NCBI GenBank assembly: GCA_030167145.1
Contig: CP126532.1
Span: 4,950,001-4,982,000, forward strand
DNA from: Ktedonobacterales bacterium
GTDB taxonomy: Bacteria > Chloroflexota > Ktedonobacteria > Ktedonobacterales > JADMIN01
Reading direction: 5' to 3'
DNA length: 32,000 nucleotides
In this document: one piece after another, positions 1 through 10,993 of the stretch
Layout of the letters: each line of letters starts with the position of its first letter
Position numbering within the stretch: position 1 is the first letter of the stretch
The notes under the pieces: model-generated
What the model was told of the DNA's origin: nothing
The model's database searches: none
What the model saw: the letters and a program-made list of their open reading frames with translations, nothing else
Made by a program: the position numbers and the translations under genes

Positions 1-1394
1 AAGACTTCGTGCTCACCGACGAAAAACGCTTCAGCGGCTTCGACCGCGAGCCGCGCATTATCTGCTCGCTGCCGCAGTTCGTGCGCTCCTTCGATCACAT
101 CGCCATACGCTCCTGGGACATGGTGATTGTAGACGAGGCGCACCTGCTCGCCAATCCGGAGTCGAAGCGACGCCGCTGTGCCGGGCTGCTGCGCGCGCGC
201 TGGCGGCTGTTGCTCACCGCCACACCGGTCGCCAACAAAGTCACCGACCTGTATAGCCTCATAGACCTCGTTGCACCCGGAAAACTCGGCACACGCCGCG
301 AATTTGAGAATGAATTCGTCGCCGATGCTGCCACCTGTCGTATTGTGCGGCCCGACCGCCTTGCCGAACTACGCGCCATCGTCGCCCAGGTAAGCTGTCG
401 TACCCGCCGCGCCGACGCCGAGATTCCATTCGCCGGTCGCACAGTCTATACCCGCGATATTGCTCCCACGTCCGCCGAAGACGCGCTCATCAGCGACGTC
501 ACCAATTATCTGCGTGCGCTCTACCGCCGTCTGCCAGCACCAGCCCGCAACCAGCGTGGGCGCACGTCGGCGCCTGCCGCGGAGCGCAGCGGCCCACGTA
601 TCAACCGTGGGGCGGTGATCCGCGAGATTATGGCGTTGCAACAATCGCTCAGCAGCCATCCACGCGCCATCGAACAATCGCTACGCCGCCGAGCCGAAAG
701 CCATGCCGATGAGCGCGATATCCTGCTCGCGCTCGCGGACCGCTGCCAGACGGCGGCCAGCGCAAAAGAGCGATTGCTGCATGAGGTGCTTGCCGACCTC
801 AAGGGCGAGCCAGCGCTTATTTTCACCCTGCGGCTCGAAACCGCCGCACATCTGCGTGAGGCCATCCGTGCCCGTGGCAGTACCGCCGAATGCTACATCG
901 GCGCGCTGAGCCGCCTGGAACGCGAAGCGCTGGTGGCGCGCTTCAACGCCGGTGAAATCAGCGCGTTGATCGCCACCGACGCGGGCGCGGAAGGGTTGAA
1001 CTTGCAGCAGCGCTGCCATGTCGTCGTGAACTATGACCTGCACTGGAACCCAATGCGCATCGAGCAGCGCATCGGGCGTGTTCACCGCCTGGGGCAATCG
1101 CGCGATGTCTCGGTCTACAATTTCGCGCTCAGCGACACCATTGACGACTACGTGCTGCGACTGCTCTATCAGAAGATCAATCTCTTCACCATGACCGTCG
1201 GCGCGCTGGAGACGGTGCTCTCTGAAGTGCAGGAAGGCGAGCTTGACCTCGAAGAGCGCATCCTCGACGCGCTGCTGCGCGCCGACTCGCCAGACGCTAT
1301 ACGTCGCGAAGTAGAGGCCCTCGGCGACGAGCTAGTCGGTGCGGACCAGCGGCAACACGAAGCCATATCGTTCACCGAGAGGGTACTCGCATGA
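1..1394 (+). CDS. SNF2/Swi2-family ATPase-helicase, C-terminal portion (5'-partial; N-terminus lies upstream of the window)
   Basis: The frame is open from the window edge, so the GTG at 9 is only the ORF-finder start. SF2 motif II 'VIVDEAHLLAN', 'LLLTATPVANK', and the helicase-C block 'LIATDAGAEGLNLQQRCHVVVNYDLHWNPMRIEQRIGRVHRLGQSRDVSVYNF' (motifs V-VI typical of SNF2). Stop TGA at 1392-1394. Confidence 0.9.
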   Translation, partial: DFVLTDEKRFSGFDREPRIICSLPQFVRSFDHIAIRSWDMVIVDEAHLLANPESKRRRCAGLLRARWRLLLTATPVANKVTDLYSLIDLVAPGKLGTRREFENEFVADAATCRIVRPDRLAELRAIVAQVSCRTRRADAEIPFAGRTVYTRDIAPTSAEDALISDVTNYLRALYRRLPAPARNQRGRTSAPAAERSGPRINRGAVIREIMALQQSLSSHPRAIEQSLRRRAESHADERDILLALADRCQTAASAKERLLHEVLADLKGEPALIFTLRLETAAHLREAIRARGSTAECYIGALSRLEREALVARFNAGEISALIATDAGAEGLNLQQRCHVVVNYDLHWNPMRIEQRIGRVHRLGQSRDVSVYNFALSDTIDDYVLRLLYQKINLFTMTVGALETVLSEVQEGELDLEERILDALLRADSPDAIRREVEALGDELVGADQRQHEAISFTERVLA

Positions 1395-3676
1395 AGTGGC
1401 TGTTCAAGTGGCGTAAGAAAGACGCACGCGAGCCAGATACACCCAGGAGCGCCGCTCCCAGCTCTTCGGCGGCAAAGCGCTCAAGTGAACGGTCCGGCGG
1501 CATCAGCGCCGCCAGCCCACTACTCCAATTCGCTGGTGAGGCTCTCATCTTGCGTGGCGCACGTGTGCGTGTCGAAGATGCCGATCTGCTCTTCGCCGTG
1601 CTGCCCGACGGAGCCACCCTGCGCTACACCGACTTCGCTCCACGGGCGCGCGAGAGCCAAGATATACAGCTCCTCGCCCCTGGCAGCGCCGCGCTCGCCG
1701 ACCTGCTCGCCGAGACCGCACGACACGGCGCGTTGGGCGCATTCGAGCTTCCCGCCTCGGCTGACCCTATTGAGCGCGCCCGCACTGGCTGCGGCGACAT
1801 CCCCACTGCCTGTGGCCGCTGTGTCGCGAAGAACGCCGAAGACGCCATTCCGCCCGCCCTCTGCGAAGTCTGTCCATTGCGTGCGGGTCGCCTCGGTGTT
1901 CTCGGGCTGGGACGTATCCGCGACGTGCGCGAAGTGCGGCGCTGGCAGGCTCAGAGCGTTGAGTTGACGTTTCGCGTGACCTACCGTGACCGCCACGGAC
2001 GCTATGACGAGTGGCTGCGCTTTGGCTGGGATCCCATGACTGGCCAGCCATTGCCTCCCATCGCGCTCGCTTCGCTGGCGCACGCGCGTGTACTTCCCCT
2101 GCCACCCACTGCGCGCGACTTGCTTGCGCCCGCGCTTGCCGAGGCCGAACGCGCCCTTCAACCCCGGCAGGAAGCTGCGGCGGTGTTTTTCGCTCAGCGT
2201 GATAACGCCGAATACCAGCGCCAGCGCGACGACCTGCTGACGACCGCTGAACGTCTGCGCCGCGAATCTGACCAAGCGCCAGACGAGATCGAACGTTCGC
2301 TCGCCATGGAACTGACACGGCTTGGCGATGTATTTGCCGTCGGTGTGGATGCCGAGCTAGAGAGCGCCGTCTTCATTACCACGCCAATGGCTGAAGTCAC
2401 GGTGCGCGGTGGCTCTGGTTCGCTCACGCTGCACCTCGATCTGGGTCGGGATGTCGTTGCGCCGCTGGCATGCGCCCACTGCGGGCAGTTCACCCAGGCA
2501 GCGGTCCTTTGCCGTCAAGGGCACCTGCTCTGCCCACGCTGCGCGCCTGCGCGCACGACATCCGCAGCCGCTACCGTTTCTTGCCCTGTCTGCGAAGGCA
2601 TCCCCGCCACGCCTGGCAGTAGCGCATCGCCCAGGTCACGCCGTGGCAAGGCGCGCACAGAGCCAGACGCGCTGACGGTGACGCATCTCGATGCGATGAC
2701 CGATGAGACTTGGCGCCGCTTTGTCGGCTGGTATCTCGAACAGCAGCAATGCGCTATTGACCGAGTTGAGGAACGCGAGAGCGCGCCCATATGGCGGCTC
2801 CGCGCCGCCGGTGAGCCGCTCATAGCCCTTGCGCCGCGTCCCGGCATTGACCGCGCCCTCGGCGACGTAGAGGTGCGCGCCGCCGCCGCGTCCGCCCGCG
2901 GTTCGGCGCTCTGGCTGATCACGTCTTCTCCCGCCGCGCCAGAGGCCCATGCCACCGCCAAGCAATTTGGCGTGCGCATCATAGATCGTGCTGAGATGGC
3001 GCGCTTCCTTGCCACTGCCTCGCAGGCGCACACGCAACAGCGTATCGAAGCCGAACGCGACACTTTGGCGCGCATCGCAGCGGCGACCGCGCTTCATACG
3101 ACGCTGCTGGATACATTTTCCGCGTTGGAGCATATGCTGGCGACCGCCGAAAATGCTGATCGCGTGGGCAGTCGGTCGGCCCTGGTTGCCGCCGCGACCC
3201 GCATTGAAGCGGACTGCCAGACAGCAGAGCGCGCATTCCTCGCGTGGGATACGATCCTGGCGGAGTGGATTGCCGCCTTTGGCGAACGCGAGGCGCGTGA
3301 CGGCAGCCTGGCGGTGCTGCTCACGCCATCCGCGTTTGACACACTTGGCGCGCGGATCGCTCATTTGCGCGAAGCCACCCTTGCCGCATTTGCGTCCATT
3401 GCCGCCACCCCTGGCGACGGCGAAGCGGGGTATGCCGTCTGGCGCAAAGCCGTCCTCGAAGCATTCACCGCCCGCTGCGAGTCGTTGCGCTGGCGCACCC
3501 AGATCATCACGCCCGCGCAGTGGCGCGACTTCAGCGCGGCCCACGATACCCAGGCCGCCGCGCAGTCCGAGAGCAGCGCCACCAGCGCCCGCTATGCCGC
3601 TGGCCGCGCCGCCAAAGCCTACGACGACTTCGCCCCGCGCATCCGCACAGGTAAAGCCATCGCCCGCCACGGATAG
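1391..3676 (+). CDS. Hypothetical 761-aa Cys-rich protein: zinc ribbon, RING-spaced Cys/His cluster, degenerate Mrr-like segment, Ala-rich helical tail
   Basis: ATG 1391 overlaps the SNF2 stop (ATGA at 1391-1394). CGRC-x14-CEVC at 1811-1873. C-x2-C-x9-C-x3-H-x2-C-x2-C-x13-C-x2-C at 2471-2593, verified codon by codon. The segment 2672-3013 ('MTDETWRRFVGWYLEQ...ALWLITSS...FGVRIIDRAEMARFL') has the order and spacing of an Mrr_cat restriction-endonuclease domain but no obvious catalytic D/E-x-K. I recognise no named family. Confidence 0.8.
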   Translation: MKWLFKWRKKDAREPDTPRSAAPSSSAAKRSSERSGGISAASPLLQFAGEALILRGARVRVEDADLLFAVLPDGATLRYTDFAPRARESQDIQLLAPGSAALADLLAETARHGALGAFELPASADPIERARTGCGDIPTACGRCVAKNAEDAIPPALCEVCPLRAGRLGVLGLGRIRDVREVRRWQAQSVELTFRVTYRDRHGRYDEWLRFGWDPMTGQPLPPIALASLAHARVLPLPPTARDLLAPALAEAERALQPRQEAAAVFFAQRDNAEYQRQRDDLLTTAERLRRESDQAPDEIERSLAMELTRLGDVFAVGVDAELESAVFITTPMAEVTVRGGSGSLTLHLDLGRDVVAPLACAHCGQFTQAAVLCRQGHLLCPRCAPARTTSAAATVSCPVCEGIPATPGSSASPRSRRGKARTEPDALTVTHLDAMTDETWRRFVGWYLEQQQCAIDRVEERESAPIWRLRAAGEPLIALAPRPGIDRALGDVEVRAAAASARGSALWLITSSPAAPEAHATAKQFGVRIIDRAEMARFLATASQAHTQQRIEAERDTLARIAAATALHTTLLDTFSALEHMLATAENADRVGSRSALVAAATRIEADCQTAERAFLAWDTILAEWIAAFGEREARDGSLAVLLTPSAFDTLGARIAHLREATLAAFASIAATPGDGEAGYAVWRKAVLEAFTARCESLRWRTQIITPAQWRDFSAAHDTQAAAQSESSATSARYAAGRAAKAYDDFAPRIRTGKAIARHG

Positions 3677-3795
3677 CCGTACCAGTCGCCTCGCCGCGCG
3701 GGTACATCTTGCCCCGTAAGTTGCCATCCGCCTGAGCGCATTGGCTATACTGGCGTGGAGAGCCGCATTCGACACAGAGATCGGGCAGAGAGGTG

Positions 3796-7917: not shown

Positions 7918-8144
7918 ACTCCAGTTTCTGTGACTTTGCTGTGTACCGCGCGACATAGCATGTGGCATACATCACCGCATTGCTCTCGATACTACTCCGC
8001 AAACGAATGCCGTGTATACCGCCGTGTTGCGTATTTTGTCCGTCGCTGTCACACTTGTGCCAATGGCGCGACTACTCTACTGTAGAGTCACCAGTCAGCG
8101 CCGATCCAAGGCGGAATGTTGGGAGGGGAAAGAGGTTGTTGTTC

Positions 8145-8822
8145 ATGCCTCACAGTGCAGTATCGTCGCTTGACATCGGCGCGCCGCCGTCCTGGCCGGG
8201 CGTGCGTGTACTTGAAGCACTGCGGCGCTGGATTGTCGCGCTCGCGTCGCCAGAGAATCCGCCCTCCACGGTAGTCTCGCCTTCAGATGCGTCTGCCTCG
8301 AATGCGACGGCTCCGACGTCACCATCGGCGCCACATGAACGAGCAGACGCGCTCTATCAACAGCATGCGCGTGCGGTGCTTGGCTACCTCTGCGCCCGCC
8401 TCCCCACCCTCGCGGACGCTGAAGACGCGCTCGCCGAGGTCTTTCTTGCCGCCTTGCGTGCTTGCGCCACTGGCGAACAACCTGGCATCGGTTGGCTGAT
8501 ACAGGTCGCGCGCCGTCGCGTCGCGGACTTTTACCGTGGGCGTGAGCGCGCCGCGGTGATTATCGTACATGACGAGCGGCTGGCCACCCTCCCCGACGAT
8601 ACCACTGGCCCCGAACAGGCTGTGTTGCAAGCCGAAACGATGCACGAAGTGCTGGCGCTGGTGGCCGCGCTCCCCGATGAGCAGCGTGAGGCGCTCGTGC
8701 TACGCTTCGCCTCTGGGCTGCGCTCACCGCAAATCGCCGCGATACTGGGCAAGTCCGACGAAGCCACCCGCGCGCTGCTCTCGCGCGCGCTGCGCCGTCT
8801 GCGGAAGGAGCTAAGCCGATGA
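8145..8822 (+). CDS. ECF-type sigma-70 family RNA polymerase sigma factor
   Basis: Region 2 'LYQQHARAVLGYLCARLPTLADAEDALAEVFLAAL' and region 4 'LPDEQREALVLRFASGLRSPQIAAILGKSDEATRALLSRALRRLRKEL'. Start is uncertain. ATG 8145 gives an N-terminal extension of about 65 aa that is Ser/Pro-rich. Confidence 0.85.
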   Translation: MPHSAVSSLDIGAPPSWPGVRVLEALRRWIVALASPENPPSTVVSPSDASASNATAPTSPSAPHERADALYQQHARAVLGYLCARLPTLADAEDALAEVFLAALRACATGEQPGIGWLIQVARRRVADFYRGRERAAVIIVHDERLATLPDDTTGPEQAVLQAETMHEVLALVAALPDEQREALVLRFASGLRSPQIAAILGKSDEATRALLSRALRRLRKELSR

Positions 8823-10993
8823 CTCCCCGCGATTCACAACCCAATCACACGGATGATATGCACGATGAGTTCACGCTCGACATTGAAGCGATGGACGCTC
8901 TCGCGCCGGCCAATCTCGACGCCAGCATCGAATCGCTACGCCAATCGCAAGTGGATACTGCCGACGCCCGGCTGGTGCGCGCGTTGGCCAGCGTTTATAC
9001 CCTACCAAGCGGCGCGGATGCCGTGTTAGAGCGCGTGCGCGCCTGTATCACCGCCGCTCCGCTGCCTGACCTTGACAGCGGCTCCGACGACGCCATTGGC
9101 GCGGATGCGGGCCATCCATCGCGGCCCGCGCCCCGCCCCGCACCTACGCGGCCAGGTAGCCGTGCGGGCGCGGCGTTCCGCGCCATCGCGGCGATGCTGA
9201 CGGTGGCGCTCATCGCGGGGAGCTTTCTCACAGTACTGCGCCTTCATCAGCGCGCGGGCACATCCACTCCCACCTGGCAAGATGTCAGCATCACCCGCGC
9301 CCACACCACCCAGCCGCTCAACTTCGATCCCAAGAACGGCATCACGTATGCCGTCAGCCAGACGAGCGCCAACATCTACGCCTGTGGAAGCGGCCACCTC
9401 TGGTACAGCGCCGACGGCGGCGCGACCTACCAGCCTTTCACCCCCGCCGAGCCTTCCTTGCCTCCTAACGTGACGAGCACATGTATACTCGCTACCGCAT
9501 CCGGTTTGCCAGGAGTGTTCGTCTTTTATCGCGATGTGAACACACCAGGCCAGCCGCTTACACCTATCGGCTATGCGGCTCCTGGCGCACTCCACTGGCA
9601 GCCATTGCCGGTGCCTGCCGCCACGCCATATACCGTGAACCTCACTCCTACCAATACCCGACTACCTGCCGACATTGTTGGAGGCGTGCTTCCCTACGCG
9701 GCGCTGGCGGGTAATGTGCGCTTTTCTGACGGCTGGCTTTTCGCACTGCTGCCCATCCAGGGCCAAACGAACGTGTTAGCTGGCTCACCAGACTTTGGCG
9801 CATCCTGGATCTGGCTCGACGCGACTTTGCAGCAATCTCAGGGCCATACATGTGAGAACTTCGCCGTCAGTTCGACCGATTCCCAGCGTCTTTACTGCAA
9901 TATTCCGGCAGGAAATCCTCAAATCTGGGAGACAATGGACCGTGGACAGACGTGGGAGCCTTACAAAGATGGCACTGGTTGGGAAACGATCGTGGGCGCG
10001 AGTAACAATGCCGCTTTTGCCGCAAGCAACCCCAAACCCACTGCTGACAGCGGCATATTGATGCGCCAGACATCCTTTGGCGGAAGTTGGCTCTTTGTCG
10101 CGCCACTGCCCTCACCTGATGCCAACAATGCCAAATTCACACAGGGGGGGCAGCGGATTTTCGAGGTAACGCCTTCCGGTGGGATCTATGAAGCGCAATA
10201 CGTCTCGGATGAGACCGGCACGACAGTACAGGTGGATAGCCTCGCACCCAACGCCACCAAGTTTGTATCAGTCGCGCACCCCCAACAATTCTCAGGTCTG
10301 TTTGGACTAGCGTTCGGCGGTACCATGCATGGCGACCGACCGGCACTATACCTGGGGGCAGGTTCTTCGGGCAAGGGCGATACCACTACCTCGCTTTACC
10401 GGCTCGCTCTCATCCCAACGAACACCCCCTCCATCATCAATACGCCTCTGCCAACCCTGACACCCGCTGAGACTGCGACACCCGTTTCGACAGTGCCCGC
10501 CTGGGCACCCAATCCAGCTTGCGCGCATGATCCAGAGATACTCGCACCGATTCAGTGGGGTGGTCTCGGCGCGAAGGCAAGTACATTTGTTCAGCGTTGG
10601 GGGCCAGCCAATGTGACCTCTGGCACGACCTATTATGGGCATTACTCTGACACGGGCACACCTGTCGTAGGGGTTGGCACTGGTCCATACACTCCGTCTA
10701 ATGGGCGTGTGGACAACATGACTTATCACGTGGACAAAACCGCTCATCTGACGCTGAAACAGGCCGAAGCGCTGGTGACGACGATCATCCCGAAAGATGC
10801 GCGCCATATCTATATTGGCGCTCCCACATCCACGCACAGCCCGATCACGCTCGGATATTGCAGCGCTGCATTCTGGGCGGCTTTCCCGCCTGGTGTAACC
10901 GAGGCAGGTCCAGGTGAAATAGCCGTTACCTACTGGCTTCGGGCAGATGGAACTGTAGACTACATGAGCATTAGTGCGGCCATGTTTGGCTGA
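8819..10993 (+). CDS. Single-pass membrane protein with Asp-box (BNR) beta-propeller-like ectodomain; positional anti-sigma factor candidate
   Basis: ATGA overlap with the sigma-factor stop. TM segment 'AAFRAIAAMLTVALIAGSFLTVLRL'. Asp-box-like repeats 'SADGGATY', 'SPDFGASW', 'MDRGQTW', 'TSFGGSW'. No HxxxCxxC zinc anti-sigma motif. The anti-sigma role is inferred from position only. Confidence 0.7.
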   Translation: MTPRDSQPNHTDDMHDEFTLDIEAMDALAPANLDASIESLRQSQVDTADARLVRALASVYTLPSGADAVLERVRACITAAPLPDLDSGSDDAIGADAGHPSRPAPRPAPTRPGSRAGAAFRAIAAMLTVALIAGSFLTVLRLHQRAGTSTPTWQDVSITRAHTTQPLNFDPKNGITYAVSQTSANIYACGSGHLWYSADGGATYQPFTPAEPSLPPNVTSTCILATASGLPGVFVFYRDVNTPGQPLTPIGYAAPGALHWQPLPVPAATPYTVNLTPTNTRLPADIVGGVLPYAALAGNVRFSDGWLFALLPIQGQTNVLAGSPDFGASWIWLDATLQQSQGHTCENFAVSSTDSQRLYCNIPAGNPQIWETMDRGQTWEPYKDGTGWETIVGASNNAAFAASNPKPTADSGILMRQTSFGGSWLFVAPLPSPDANNAKFTQGGQRIFEVTPSGGIYEAQYVSDETGTTVQVDSLAPNATKFVSVAHPQQFSGLFGLAFGGTMHGDRPALYLGAGSSGKGDTTTSLYRLALIPTNTPSIINTPLPTLTPAETATPVSTVPAWAPNPACAHDPEILAPIQWGGLGAKASTFVQRWGPANVTSGTTYYGHYSDTGTPVVGVGTGPYTPSNGRVDNMTYHVDKTAHLTLKQAEALVTTIIPKDARHIYIGAPTSTHSPITLGYCSAAFWAAFPPGVTEAGPGEIAVTYWLRADGTVDYMSISAAMFG

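Follow-up and report, generated by a model that had tools for sequence, protein, structure and literature searches.

The gene pair at the left edge of the window, a stretch of 32,000 nucleotides from a Ktedonobacterales bacterium, probably encodes a two-subunit Swi2/Snf2 DNA translocase or remodeller of the YqhH-YqhG type (we put this at roughly 60%). The enzyme would be RapA-like, split at the linker behind the ATPase core, with a partner protein that docks on the motor, zinc and dead-nuclease modules for recognition, and an ATPase for remodelling. Most relatives have three subunits. As the partner unites a RapA C-terminal domain, a RING-like finger, and a dead restriction-endonuclease (REase) fold, it would seem to serve in targeting or regulation and not as an anti-phage nuclease.

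The Gene Pair and Its Junction

The SNF2 gene (1..1394; all features given here lie on the + strand) is cut by the window edge, as the earlier note had recognized. The window holds the 3' 462 codons of a YqhH-type, core-only ATPase of 616 aa, and the 5' 152 codons fall outside. The complete gene was recovered in the upstream contig extension (L001 7980..9830, 616 aa), which revealed none of the further components suspected there, only a divergent Ser/Thr kinase gene before SNF2. Pfam detects SNF2-rel_dom (E=4.6e-20) and Helicase_C (E=1.1e-21) in the windowed ORF; motifs I, II, III, and VI are intact, and the protein comprises the motor core only.

The stop codon of SNF2 and the start codon of the 761-aa partner (1391..3676; defined by the ORF, homologues, and an AF2 model) share ATGA at 1391..1394, just as first read from the sequence, an overlap that couples their translation. 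It is not due to chance, since ATGA or GTGA occupies the same site in 14/14 related Ktedonobacterales loci. The JGI annotation places the start such that the partner is 58 aa shorter. The start at 1391 is preferable, because the N-terminal motif MKWLFKWRKK is kept across homologues and helix 43-54 belongs to the folded domain. The AF2 model of the partner reaches a pLDDT of 85 overall and a pTM of 0.73, with the first 40 residues disordered, resembling the RapA linker.

Conservation of the Pairing

The pairing is conserved from Ktedonobacterales through Firmicutes-like lineages. SNF2 lies immediately upstream of the partner in all 20 Ktedonobacterales loci (20/20; SNF2 identity 67-74%), and of the five distant relatives, which come from other lineages, four (P0170, P0133, P0173, and P0174) sit downstream of a core-only SNF2 of 577-602 aa; the fifth, P0171, has no adjoining SNF2. 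In P0161, the tail of the YqhG-like module is fused to SNF2. This consistent adjacency supports the co-expression proposed in the earlier note and marks the two genes as an obligate pair. The partner diverges much faster than the motor (identity ~38% vs ~70%).

First regarded as one 761-aa unit, the partner is instead a fusion protein in which a YqhG/RapA_C-like subunit is joined to an inactive-REase/helical one: its C-terminal half (Mrr-fold domain and helical tail) is encoded by a third gene of its own in most relatives, designated type-B loci.

A Module Resembling YqhG and the RapA C-Terminal Region

Residues 41-355 of the partner (1511..2455) form a module that was delimited by Foldseek and hhalign and consists of an alpha/beta subdomain, a long antiparallel beta-sheet, and an antiparallel coiled-coil hairpin (aa 241-314, 2111..2332). 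The hairpin, modelled by AF2 as helices 241-292 and 297-314 with pLDDT ~90, aligns with the C-terminal helices of RapA. As judged from profile comparisons and predicted structure, the conserved module is a member of the YqhG (PF11079) superfamily, and its structural equivalent is the RapA C-terminal region. Foldseek matches its model to RapA over ~322 columns (8t0l_F, 3.8e-6; 8so8, 2.1e-5; 6bog_A, 2.5e-5). RapA is the only PDB structure matched, the following match having E=0.43, and the superposition reaches a TM score of only 0.34 with an rmsd of ~9.5 Å. By hhalign, the profile A4 aligns to RapA 712-964 (E=6.7e-4), and the Ktedonobacterales module (A2) to the PF11079-positive group A5 (profile-profile score 98.7%, E=4.4e-16, 315 columns). 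P0133, whose group aligns to the Ktedonobacterales module, passes PF11079 with 36.2 bits (cut-off 25). The window partner itself stays under the PF11079 threshold, matching neither this family nor RapA_C at E<=1 in Pfam, and its YqhG/RapA homology is based on an intermediate profile and predicted structure. This placement supersedes the earlier note, which could not assign the partner to a named family by eye, and the partner's separation from SWIM-type and DrmB proteins is upheld. Pfam lists PF11079 as a 'protein of unknown function', so that the placement amounts to a family name.

The motor aligns collinearly with RapA: residues 84-609 correspond to RapA 156-678 (E=1e-41, 27% identity). With SNF2 on RapA 156-678 and the partner on RapA ~712-964, the pair represents a split RapA-like enzyme. 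The window SNF2 is nearer to SNF2s partnered with YqhG-like proteins (E ~1e-94) than to RapA, a sign of co-evolution, and its full-length identity to such SNF2s in other phyla amounts to 33-36%.

Bacillus YqhH-YqhG shows the same order, an SNF2 core of 577-620 aa followed by the partner, and the SNF2s are mutually closest. B. subtilis YqhG comprises only ~264 aa and is not known to carry the Zn ribbon, RING-like finger, Mrr fold, or helical tail; the window partner has all four, as additions made in the Ktedonobacterales, with the Mrr fold predicted to be inactive. In B. subtilis, yqhH and yqhG are likewise adjacent (PMC6123443).

Zinc Modules

A CxxC-x13-CxxC Zn ribbon (aa 141-161, 1811..1873), recognized by its cysteine pattern, is inserted within the YqhG-like module. 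The ribbon proposed earlier is present, with a spacing of x13 rather than x14, and its four cysteines (C141, C144, C158, and C161) are invariant across the partner family. It falls in a gap of the RapA alignment, RapA having no counterpart; it is missing from most of the distant relatives, and the nearest outgroups carry a Cys-rich insert there.

The cluster of seven cysteines and one histidine noted before was confirmed as C361, C364, C374, H378, C381, C384, C398, and C401. It constitutes a RING-like binuclear Zn finger (aa 358-404, 2462..2602), assigned by ligand spacing and PDB profile matches, with the pattern C-x2-C-x9-C-x3-H-x2-C-x2-C-x13-C-x2-C, which is the exact C3HC4 spacing in the window protein. 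In orthologues, ligands 6 and 7 are separated by a loop of only 2-3 residues, and in most relatives the finger continues into an array of ~10 CxxC-x4-CxxH repeats. The short loop together with this array suggests a generic structural Zn scaffold.

The Mrr-Fold Domain and the Helical Tail

Residues 425-531 (2663..2983) form an Mrr_cat-fold domain of the PD-(D/E)xK type, based on Pfam and Foldseek. Pfam recognizes the domain only weakly in the window protein (E=0.04, 14.5 bits vs a cut-off of 21) and significantly in the orthologues P0003 (9.6e-8) and P0087 (4.5e-13); Foldseek backs the fold with matches to MspJI (0.011), AF1548 (0.059), and AspBHI. No member retains the catalytic D…(E/Q)xK signature: A-x-R stands in place of QxK, and the Asp motif has disappeared. 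On these residues, the domain is predicted to be catalytically inactive, so that of the Mrr_cat-like segment described in the earlier note the fold has stood and the nuclease has not. NA-iREase1 (PF22722), a PD-(D/E)xK fold without catalytic residues presumably used for binding, offers a parallel; its matches in P0003 and P0087 are weak and sub-threshold, and here the domain occurs in an SNF2 operon, not with NACHT/STAND NTPases. The residue at the catalytic Lys position is an arginine, which formally leaves room for an unusual nuclease chemistry.

The long Ala-rich helical tail (aa 533-751, 2987..3643) appears in the AF2 model as helices with pLDDT >90, as had been anticipated. Its sequence is shared with the third genes of type-B loci, at 35-41% identity by tblastn, and neither Pfam nor Foldseek gives a significant family or fold match.

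Relation to Known SNF2 Systems

Three other readings of the locus were weighed. If the finger is a genuine E3 or E3-like module, the pair would be a Rad5/HLTF-like arrangement in trans, in which the finger links SNF2 to protein modification, ubiquitin-like or other, where forks stall or DNA is damaged, and the dead REase fold serves as a HIRAN-like sensor of DNA structure. Rad5, HLTF, SHPRH, and Rad16 likewise join to the SNF2 motor both a RING-like finger of the C3HC4 type and an additional domain of DNA-recognition type, and the exact ligand spacing in the window protein fits. The top 11 PDB matches of the finger profile are all RING E3s (best TRIM21, 1e-4; further TRIM56, BRE1, SIAH1, RNF125, and CBL), RING families recur in Pfam (Sina_RING 3e-4, Prok-RING_4 0.028, zf-C3HC4_3 0.045), and the knockout of Bt yqhH is UV-sensitive (PMC10054049). 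However, these Pfam matches are sub-threshold, no RING model attaining its gathering score, and the double-zinc-ribbon model DZR_2 competes at 0.002. AF2 gives the second half of the finger a pLDDT of 56-73 only, the short loop and repeat array of the relatives point to a scaffold, and no E1, E2, Ubl, or JAB gene occurs in any examined neighbourhood. In addition, the finger is located on a separate subunit and not inserted between the helicase lobes, and a ubiquitin-system context is absent. The resemblance to Rad5/HLTF factors raised at the outset gains some support from the finger, a candidate RING, and the Rad5/HLTF-like reading as a whole is unlikely. That the pair is a true RapA orthologue, an RNA polymerase (RNAP) recycling factor merely split into two genes, is improbable. 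The collinearity of both proteins with RapA 156-678 and 712-964 speaks for it, but the Tudor-like N-terminal RNAP-binding domain is absent, SNF2 scores 85 with the NCBIfam RapA equivalog (cut-off 576) and is much nearer to YqhH-type proteins, and the Zn ribbon, RING-like, REase-fold, and helical domains have no counterpart in RapA (HepA; 6BOG, 8SO8, 8T0L), itself a single polypeptide.

A restriction-like anti-phage module, as the earlier note considered, would pair the SNF2 motor with an Mrr-type nuclease effector, comparable to Zorya ZorD ('SNF2 + Mrr-like nuclease'), DISARM DrmD, BREX BrxH (BrxHI/II), or Dpd DpdE. The vocabulary of SNF2 and Mrr-fold domain is shared with these systems; the SNF2 fragment matches the PADLOC models of DrmD, BrxHI, ZorD, and DpdE (E=1e-46 to 1e-20), the partner evolves faster than the motor, and the flanks vary between genomes. 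Yet the PADLOC matches are limited to the generic helicase core, NCBIfam scores stay far under the equivalog cut-offs (DrmD 154 vs 610, ZorD 69 vs 1500, DpdE 113 vs 500), and PADLOC matches neither the partner nor its third-gene version. The catalytic residues are gone in every member, and the vicinity holds neither a methyltransferase gene nor ZorABC, BREX, or DISARM partners. No defence island was found at the examined loci, where neighbours are of housekeeping type and PADLOC picks out nothing beyond a generic Hanks-type kinase in one genome. The pair occurs singly, has been conserved by vertical descent, and is associated with a stress-protein gene, and the Firmicute homologue yqhH belongs to the sporulation regulon (PMC4703394). 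A defence role is very improbable on these grounds, and the module appears to be neither a nuclease nor a restriction-like system.

Proposed Function and Genomic Context

For the preferred YqhH-YqhG-type remodeller, the following course can be envisaged. The partner would dock on the motor via its RapA_C/YqhG-like module, and the Zn modules and dead-nuclease fold would recognize, or dock onto, either a DNA structure or a protein bound to DNA. Stalled nucleoprotein complexes might then be remodelled or evicted by the ATPase, probably under stress, upon DNA damage, or in dormancy transitions. RNAP is the paradigm, as it is evicted by RapA, whose Spacer domain pushes like a wedge into the cleft of RNAP (bioRxiv 10.1101/2024.09.28.614012; PMC8666675). 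As a substrate here it would be a pure analogy, because the SNF2 protein is devoid of the N-terminal RNAP-binding domain of RapA.

Several observations point to stress or dormancy. B. subtilis yqhH is transcribed by sigma-F, and its loss delays sporulation (PMC4703394); the Bt protein, whose knockout causes the UV sensitivity mentioned above, shows ATPase activity (PMC10054049). The flanking genes of the pair are of housekeeping type and differ between genomes. A KGG/LEA stress gene is the conserved divergent upstream neighbour in 16 loci and is absent from this position in the window's own genome; in one Firmicute, the KGG-equivalent position is occupied by a SASP gene.

Organisation and conservation of the gene pair

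In the locus analyzed here, an SNF2 ATPase that consists of the core only and has intact motifs forms an obligate pair with a subunit, and the conserved domain of this subunit is the counterpart of the post-core region of RapA. The SNF2-family gene enters the window from the left edge, with its 5' part outside, and stops at 1394 (Pfam SNF2-rel_dom 4.6e-20, Helicase_C 1.1e-21). The ORF of the partner protein (1391..3676, +; 761 aa) follows directly, its ATG and the SNF2 stop codon both lying within one ATGA. This shared stop/start, on which the earlier note had based co-expression of the two genes, is seen in the window and kept as ATGA or GTGA at all 14 related SNF2-partner junctions inspected. 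Since a protein identical to the partner is present on a 5.07-Mb JGI contig (P0001; locus L001 of the same genome), the SNF2 gene could be extended upstream of the window edge. The complete protein comprises 616 aa (L001 7980..9830) and consists of the helicase core alone, with no Pfam domain in its N-terminal 83 aa. The earlier note had surmised additional components upstream of the truncated helicase; the extended contig contains none, as the next gene is a divergent Ser/Thr kinase gene.

The JGI call for the partner (P0001, 703 aa) begins at Val59, 58 codons after 1391, and thereby omits window positions 1391-1564 (codons 1-58), which encode a motif conserved at the N-terminus as well as the folded domain's first helix. 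Position 1391 is the better start, since the N-terminal MKWLFKWRKK is conserved among homologues and helix 43-54 is part of the folded domain in an AlphaFold2 model, in which residues 1-40 are disordered. The two genes also harbor numerous ORFs of 100-380 aa, antisense or out of frame, e.g. 1520-2275(-) with 251 aa, 2636-3775(-) with 379 aa, and 2988-3719(+). These overlapping ORFs inside 1-3676 look like the shadow ORFs typical of 65% GC DNA; the + strand frames of the two genes have conserved homologues.

Homologues of the partner are few, with 23 clusters retrieved by a word-indexed search and 64 representatives at E<1e-30 by an exhaustive one, and all named homologues originate from metagenome-assembled genomes of uncultured Ktedonobacterales/Chloroflexota. 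In 20/20 Ktedonobacterales loci fetched, the SNF2 gene is located directly 5' of the partner gene. Across these loci, the SNF2 proteins are 67-74% identical to that of the window, and the partners 35-43%.

Similarity of the N-terminal module to RapA

Pfam, NCBIfam, and PADLOC scans of the whole partner returned nothing significant, and a match to Pfam RapA_C was likewise not obtained by sequence. An AlphaFold2 model was built from a 23-sequence alignment (pLDDT 85, pTM 0.73) and compared with the PDB by Foldseek, with E. coli RapA as the top match (E=8e-4, ~320 columns), followed by restriction-endonuclease folds (MspJI, AF1548, then Cdn1, VC1899, and AspBHI). When residues 40-406, which cover the N-terminal module (N-module, aa ~41-355), were modeled separately (pLDDT 86.8), the model was significantly similar only to three RapA entries (8t0l_F 3.8e-6, 8so8 2.1e-5, 6bog_A 2.5e-5), each over 320-324 columns, with the next match at E=0.43. 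One of these entries does not contain the RapA N-domain, so the match of the N-module lies outside that domain.

Profile comparison by hhalign placed the module collinear with RapA 712-964 (E=6.7e-4 with the broader alignment), the result being only suggestive with a single sequence or a narrow alignment (E=0.08-0.26). SNF2 residues 84-609 align to RapA 156-678 (E=1e-41), and the split between SNF2 and partner is positioned at the RapA linker. The equivalent of the RapA C-terminal region (~712-968) exists, but on a separate partner polypeptide; a CxxC-x13-CxxC ribbon forms an insertion in the module and has no counterpart in RapA. In contrast to RapA, whose residues 1-109 form an N-terminal Tudor-like RNA polymerase (RNAP)-binding domain (PMC8666675), the SNF2 protein does not possess this domain, its alignment starting at RapA 156. 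The window fragment of the SNF2 protein scored 85.4 bits with the NCBIfam equivalog for RapA (NF003426), the cut-off of which is 576.

Relationship to the YqhH/YqhG pair

PF11079, the YqhG family, has a wide distribution and carries the label 'unknown function' to this day. In B. subtilis, yqhG adjoins the SNF2 helicase gene yqhH (PMC6123443). The window protein has no PF11079 match at E<=1 and does not reach the family's gathering threshold of 25 bits. Beyond the close homologues, the exhaustive profile search yielded more distant relatives of both high-GC and low-GC lineages that are collinear with the module, and YqhG was the sole recurring Pfam family among 74 of them (4/74 at E<=0.01, best E 4.1e-9). 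One relative, P0133, exceeds the curated PF11079 threshold (36.2 bits vs 25, residues 47-247). When the Ktedonobacterales module alignment (A2) was compared with that of the P0133 group (A5) by hhalign, a probability of 98.7% and E=4.4e-16 were obtained over 315 columns, covering the entire module including the Zn finger. On the basis of these profiles, homology of the N-module to bona fide YqhG family members is demonstrable, and the partner, which the earlier note could not place by eye in any named family, can be related to one.

The genomic context of the distant relatives bears out an ancient pairing of SNF2 and partner. P0170, P0133, P0173, and P0174 are each encoded downstream of a core-only SNF2 gene (577-602 aa), and in P0161 the module end is fused to an SNF2. 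The question raised in the earlier note, whether partner homologues are consistently linked to SNF2 genes, can thus be answered positively for these four relatives as well as for the 20 Ktedonobacterales loci; P0171 is the only distant relative examined without this linkage. The window SNF2 shares 33-36% identity over the full length (E ~1e-94) with the partner-linked SNF2 proteins and only 27% with RapA, which indicates that motor and partner co-evolved as a YqhH/YqhG-type pair. The gene pair is of the YqhH/YqhG kind, known but essentially uncharacterised, of which the Ktedonobacterales version represents a variant with a new architecture.

Two partner architectures

The family alignment divides the partners into 6 type-A sequences (window included) and 17 type-B sequences. 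Type-A proteins consist of a conserved ~400-aa N-module, an Mrr-like segment, and a helical tail. In type-B proteins, the same N-module is followed by ~10 15-residue CxxC-x4-CxxH-x3 repeats and a small C-terminal domain. The Mrr-like and helical parts are encoded in type-B loci by a third gene of their own (~449 aa) just downstream, the product of which shares 35-41% identity with residues 421-761 of the window protein. From this separate third gene, and judged on sequence, it follows that the 761-aa partner is a fusion of two subunits that has lost the Cys-repeat array.

The type-B array resembles tandem Zn knuckles (P0008 ~404-572, P0018 ~399-567; e.g. L003 10001-11917), and the conserved small domain behind it comprises ~60 aa (...INLKRKWQVG...KGWLAR). 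Neither the array nor this domain has a Pfam match, and both are lost from the window protein.

Zinc-binding clusters and the Mrr-like domain

Both Cys clusters described in the earlier note are real, although the ribbon has the spacing CxxC-x13-CxxC instead of x14; its ligands C141, C144, C158, and C161 are invariant across the family. The second cluster, C361-x2-C364-x9-C374-x3-H378-x2-C381-x2-C384-x13-C398-x2-C401, shows exact C3HC4 RING spacing (C-x2-C-x(9-39)-C-x(1-3)-H-x(2-3)-C-x2-C-x(4-48)-C-x2-C). Searched against the PDB, the whole-family profile found RING E3 ligases only, weakly, and for a finger-only profile of the wider family the first 11 matches were all RING E3s, headed by TRIM21 (1e-4, 25 bits) and followed by TRIM56, BRE1, SIAH1, ML-IAP, and RNF125. 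Of the eight ligands, 1, 2, and 4-8 coincide with those of TRIM21, and ligand 3 is off by 2 residues. No Pfam RING family reaches its gathering score in the window finger (Sina_RING as the best 21.3 bits vs 29.3, Prok-RING_4 14.8 vs 27, zf-C3HC4_3 14 vs 27), double-zinc-ribbon models compete for it, and its second half is modeled with pLDDT 56-73. The last finger loop has just 2-3 residues in several orthologues, in most relatives the finger leads on into the Cys-repeat array, and E1, E2, Ubl, or JAB genes were found in none of the neighborhoods examined. Because of the sub-threshold Pfam scores, the short loop, the continuation into the array, and the missing ubiquitin-system genes, the cluster is designated here as RING-like and is not called an E3.

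For the following segment, the earlier note had described a layout like that of an Mrr_cat restriction-endonuclease domain. Its PD-(D/E)xK fold is borne out by structural matches to MspJI (0.011), AF1548 (0.059), and AspBHI (0.30) with probabilities of 0.9-1.0 in a region modeled with pLDDT ~90, and by Mrr_cat (PF04471), for which the window protein scores 14.5 bits vs a gathering score of 21 and the orthologues P0003 and P0087 32.6 and 49.8 bits; the fold is thus supported at the level of models and orthologues. An active enzyme is not. In an alignment of 14 sequences (P0087, six fused proteins, and the products of seven third genes), A-x-R is found at the position of (E/Q)xK in 14/14, and the upstream Asp motif is missing from all except P0087. 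The loss of catalytic residues, together with weak matches of the orthologues P0003 and P0087 to an 'inactive REase' family (NA-iREase1), predicts a binding module instead of a nuclease.

Defence versus stress and dormancy

The combination of an SNF2 motor with an Mrr-like fold had led the earlier note to consider a restriction-like anti-phage module. PADLOC matched only the generic helicase core of SNF2, leaving partner and third gene unmatched, and the scores of SNF2 with NCBIfam equivalogs for DISARM DrmD (154 bits vs a cut-off of 610), Zorya ZorD (69 vs 1500), and Dpd DpdE (113 vs 500) are far too low. Companion genes of these three systems were not found near the pair, and the residues for nuclease activity are lost, so the anti-phage reading is not upheld. 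A location in a defence island was rejected as well: the genes flanking the pair are metabolic or housekeeping genes that differ between genomes, and PADLOC on nine flanking proteins gave a single match, a generic Hanks-type Ser/Thr kinase hitting PD-T4-6, in one genome. An 'SNF2 + Mrr-fold' combination should therefore not automatically be annotated as defence; in the present case, nuclease chemistry has been lost in a setting of stress or dormancy.

In 16 Ktedonobacterales loci, a divergent gene for a KGG-repeat/LEA_5-type stress protein (~100 aa) is located 250-520 bp upstream of SNF2 (L002 7605-7901(-), L003 7606-7908(-), and the equivalent position in L004, L005, L007, L008, L010, L011, and L013-L020); it is absent from the window's genome (L001) and from L006. 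The divergent placement suggests a common stress-responsive control region with the SNF2 gene. In the spore-forming Firmicute encoding P0133, a gene for a small acid-soluble spore protein (SASP) is found divergently upstream of SNF2 (L024 3481-3681(-); also L025 and L026), in parallel to the KGG/LEA neighbor of Ktedonobacterales. Published work on yqhH fits this picture. In B. subtilis, the gene is transcribed from sigma-F, with sporulation delayed by insertions in it (PMC4703394); in B. thuringiensis, its knockout causes UV sensitivity, and the YqhH protein hydrolyses ATP (PMC10054049).

Proposed function

By analogy, the partner subunit would dock on the SNF2 motor like the equivalent region in RapA. 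The Zn ribbon, the RING-like finger, the dead restriction-endonuclease fold, and the helical bundle would serve to recognise either a DNA structure or a protein bound to DNA, and the complex might then remodel or evict stalled nucleoprotein complexes under stress, upon damage, or in dormancy transitions. The Spacer domain of RapA wedges into the opened RNAP cleft as the enzyme dislodges post-termination complexes (bioRxiv 10.1101/2024.09.28.614012). RNAP as substrate of the pair is suggested by analogy only, since the RNAP-binding N-domain of RapA (PMC8666675) is absent.

A further-reaching reading takes the finger as a genuine RING that works in trans with a motor of the RapA/YqhH type and the degenerate Mrr fold as a sensor of DNA lesions or structures. 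The pair would then be a bacterial multi-subunit counterpart, and possible evolutionary forerunner, of the eukaryotic Rad5/HLTF/SHPRH-type RING-SNF2 enzymes, and would serve to maintain the genome of Ktedonobacteria and Firmicutes in desiccation or spore-related states. The RING spacing and the E3 matches speak for this reading, the features that led to the name RING-like against it, and we regard it as highly improbable.

The RapA match suggests that YqhG represents, in detached form, the C-terminal domain of an Swi2/Snf2 enzyme like RapA, giving the family a structural rationale; no paper connecting the two was found in the literature searched. The sigma-F-controlled YqhH-YqhG sporulation pair of Bacillus becomes testable as a two-subunit remodeller. 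The Ktedonobacterales variant presents this subunit as a platform gathering recognition modules, namely the Zn ribbon, the RING-like finger, Cys-repeat arrays, and the dead restriction-enzyme fold. A RING-like finger in obligate linkage with a bacterial SNF2 motor is unusual, and its presence on such a subunit, like the split-RapA interpretation, remains worth testing.

Additional observations on neighboring genes

Two small UPF0150 genes (HicB-like antitoxin fold) lie between SNF2 and the YqhG-like partner in one lineage (L029 2901-3455, L030 2656-3210), and in L028 a RadC gene is located immediately 3' of the partner. P0171 (433 aa, L022/L023 6001-7302), the distant YqhG-like, RING-like relative without an SNF2 neighbor, is encoded convergently with a UvrD-family helicase gene, followed by a Fic gene; this context may reflect a switch of the partner to another helicase. 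The divergent Hanks-type Ser/Thr kinase gene upstream of the window (L001 5748-7145(-)) matches PADLOC PD-T4-6 models with up to 2.8e-58, probably through generic kinase-domain similarity, and its position next to the operon is not conserved in other genomes. Within the window, an ECF-type sigma-70 gene (Sigma70_r4) overlaps by 4 bp with a downstream 724-aa ORF (7962-10993(+) for both); this ORF, with neither a Pfam nor a PADLOC match, possibly encodes a large anti-sigma or associated factor.
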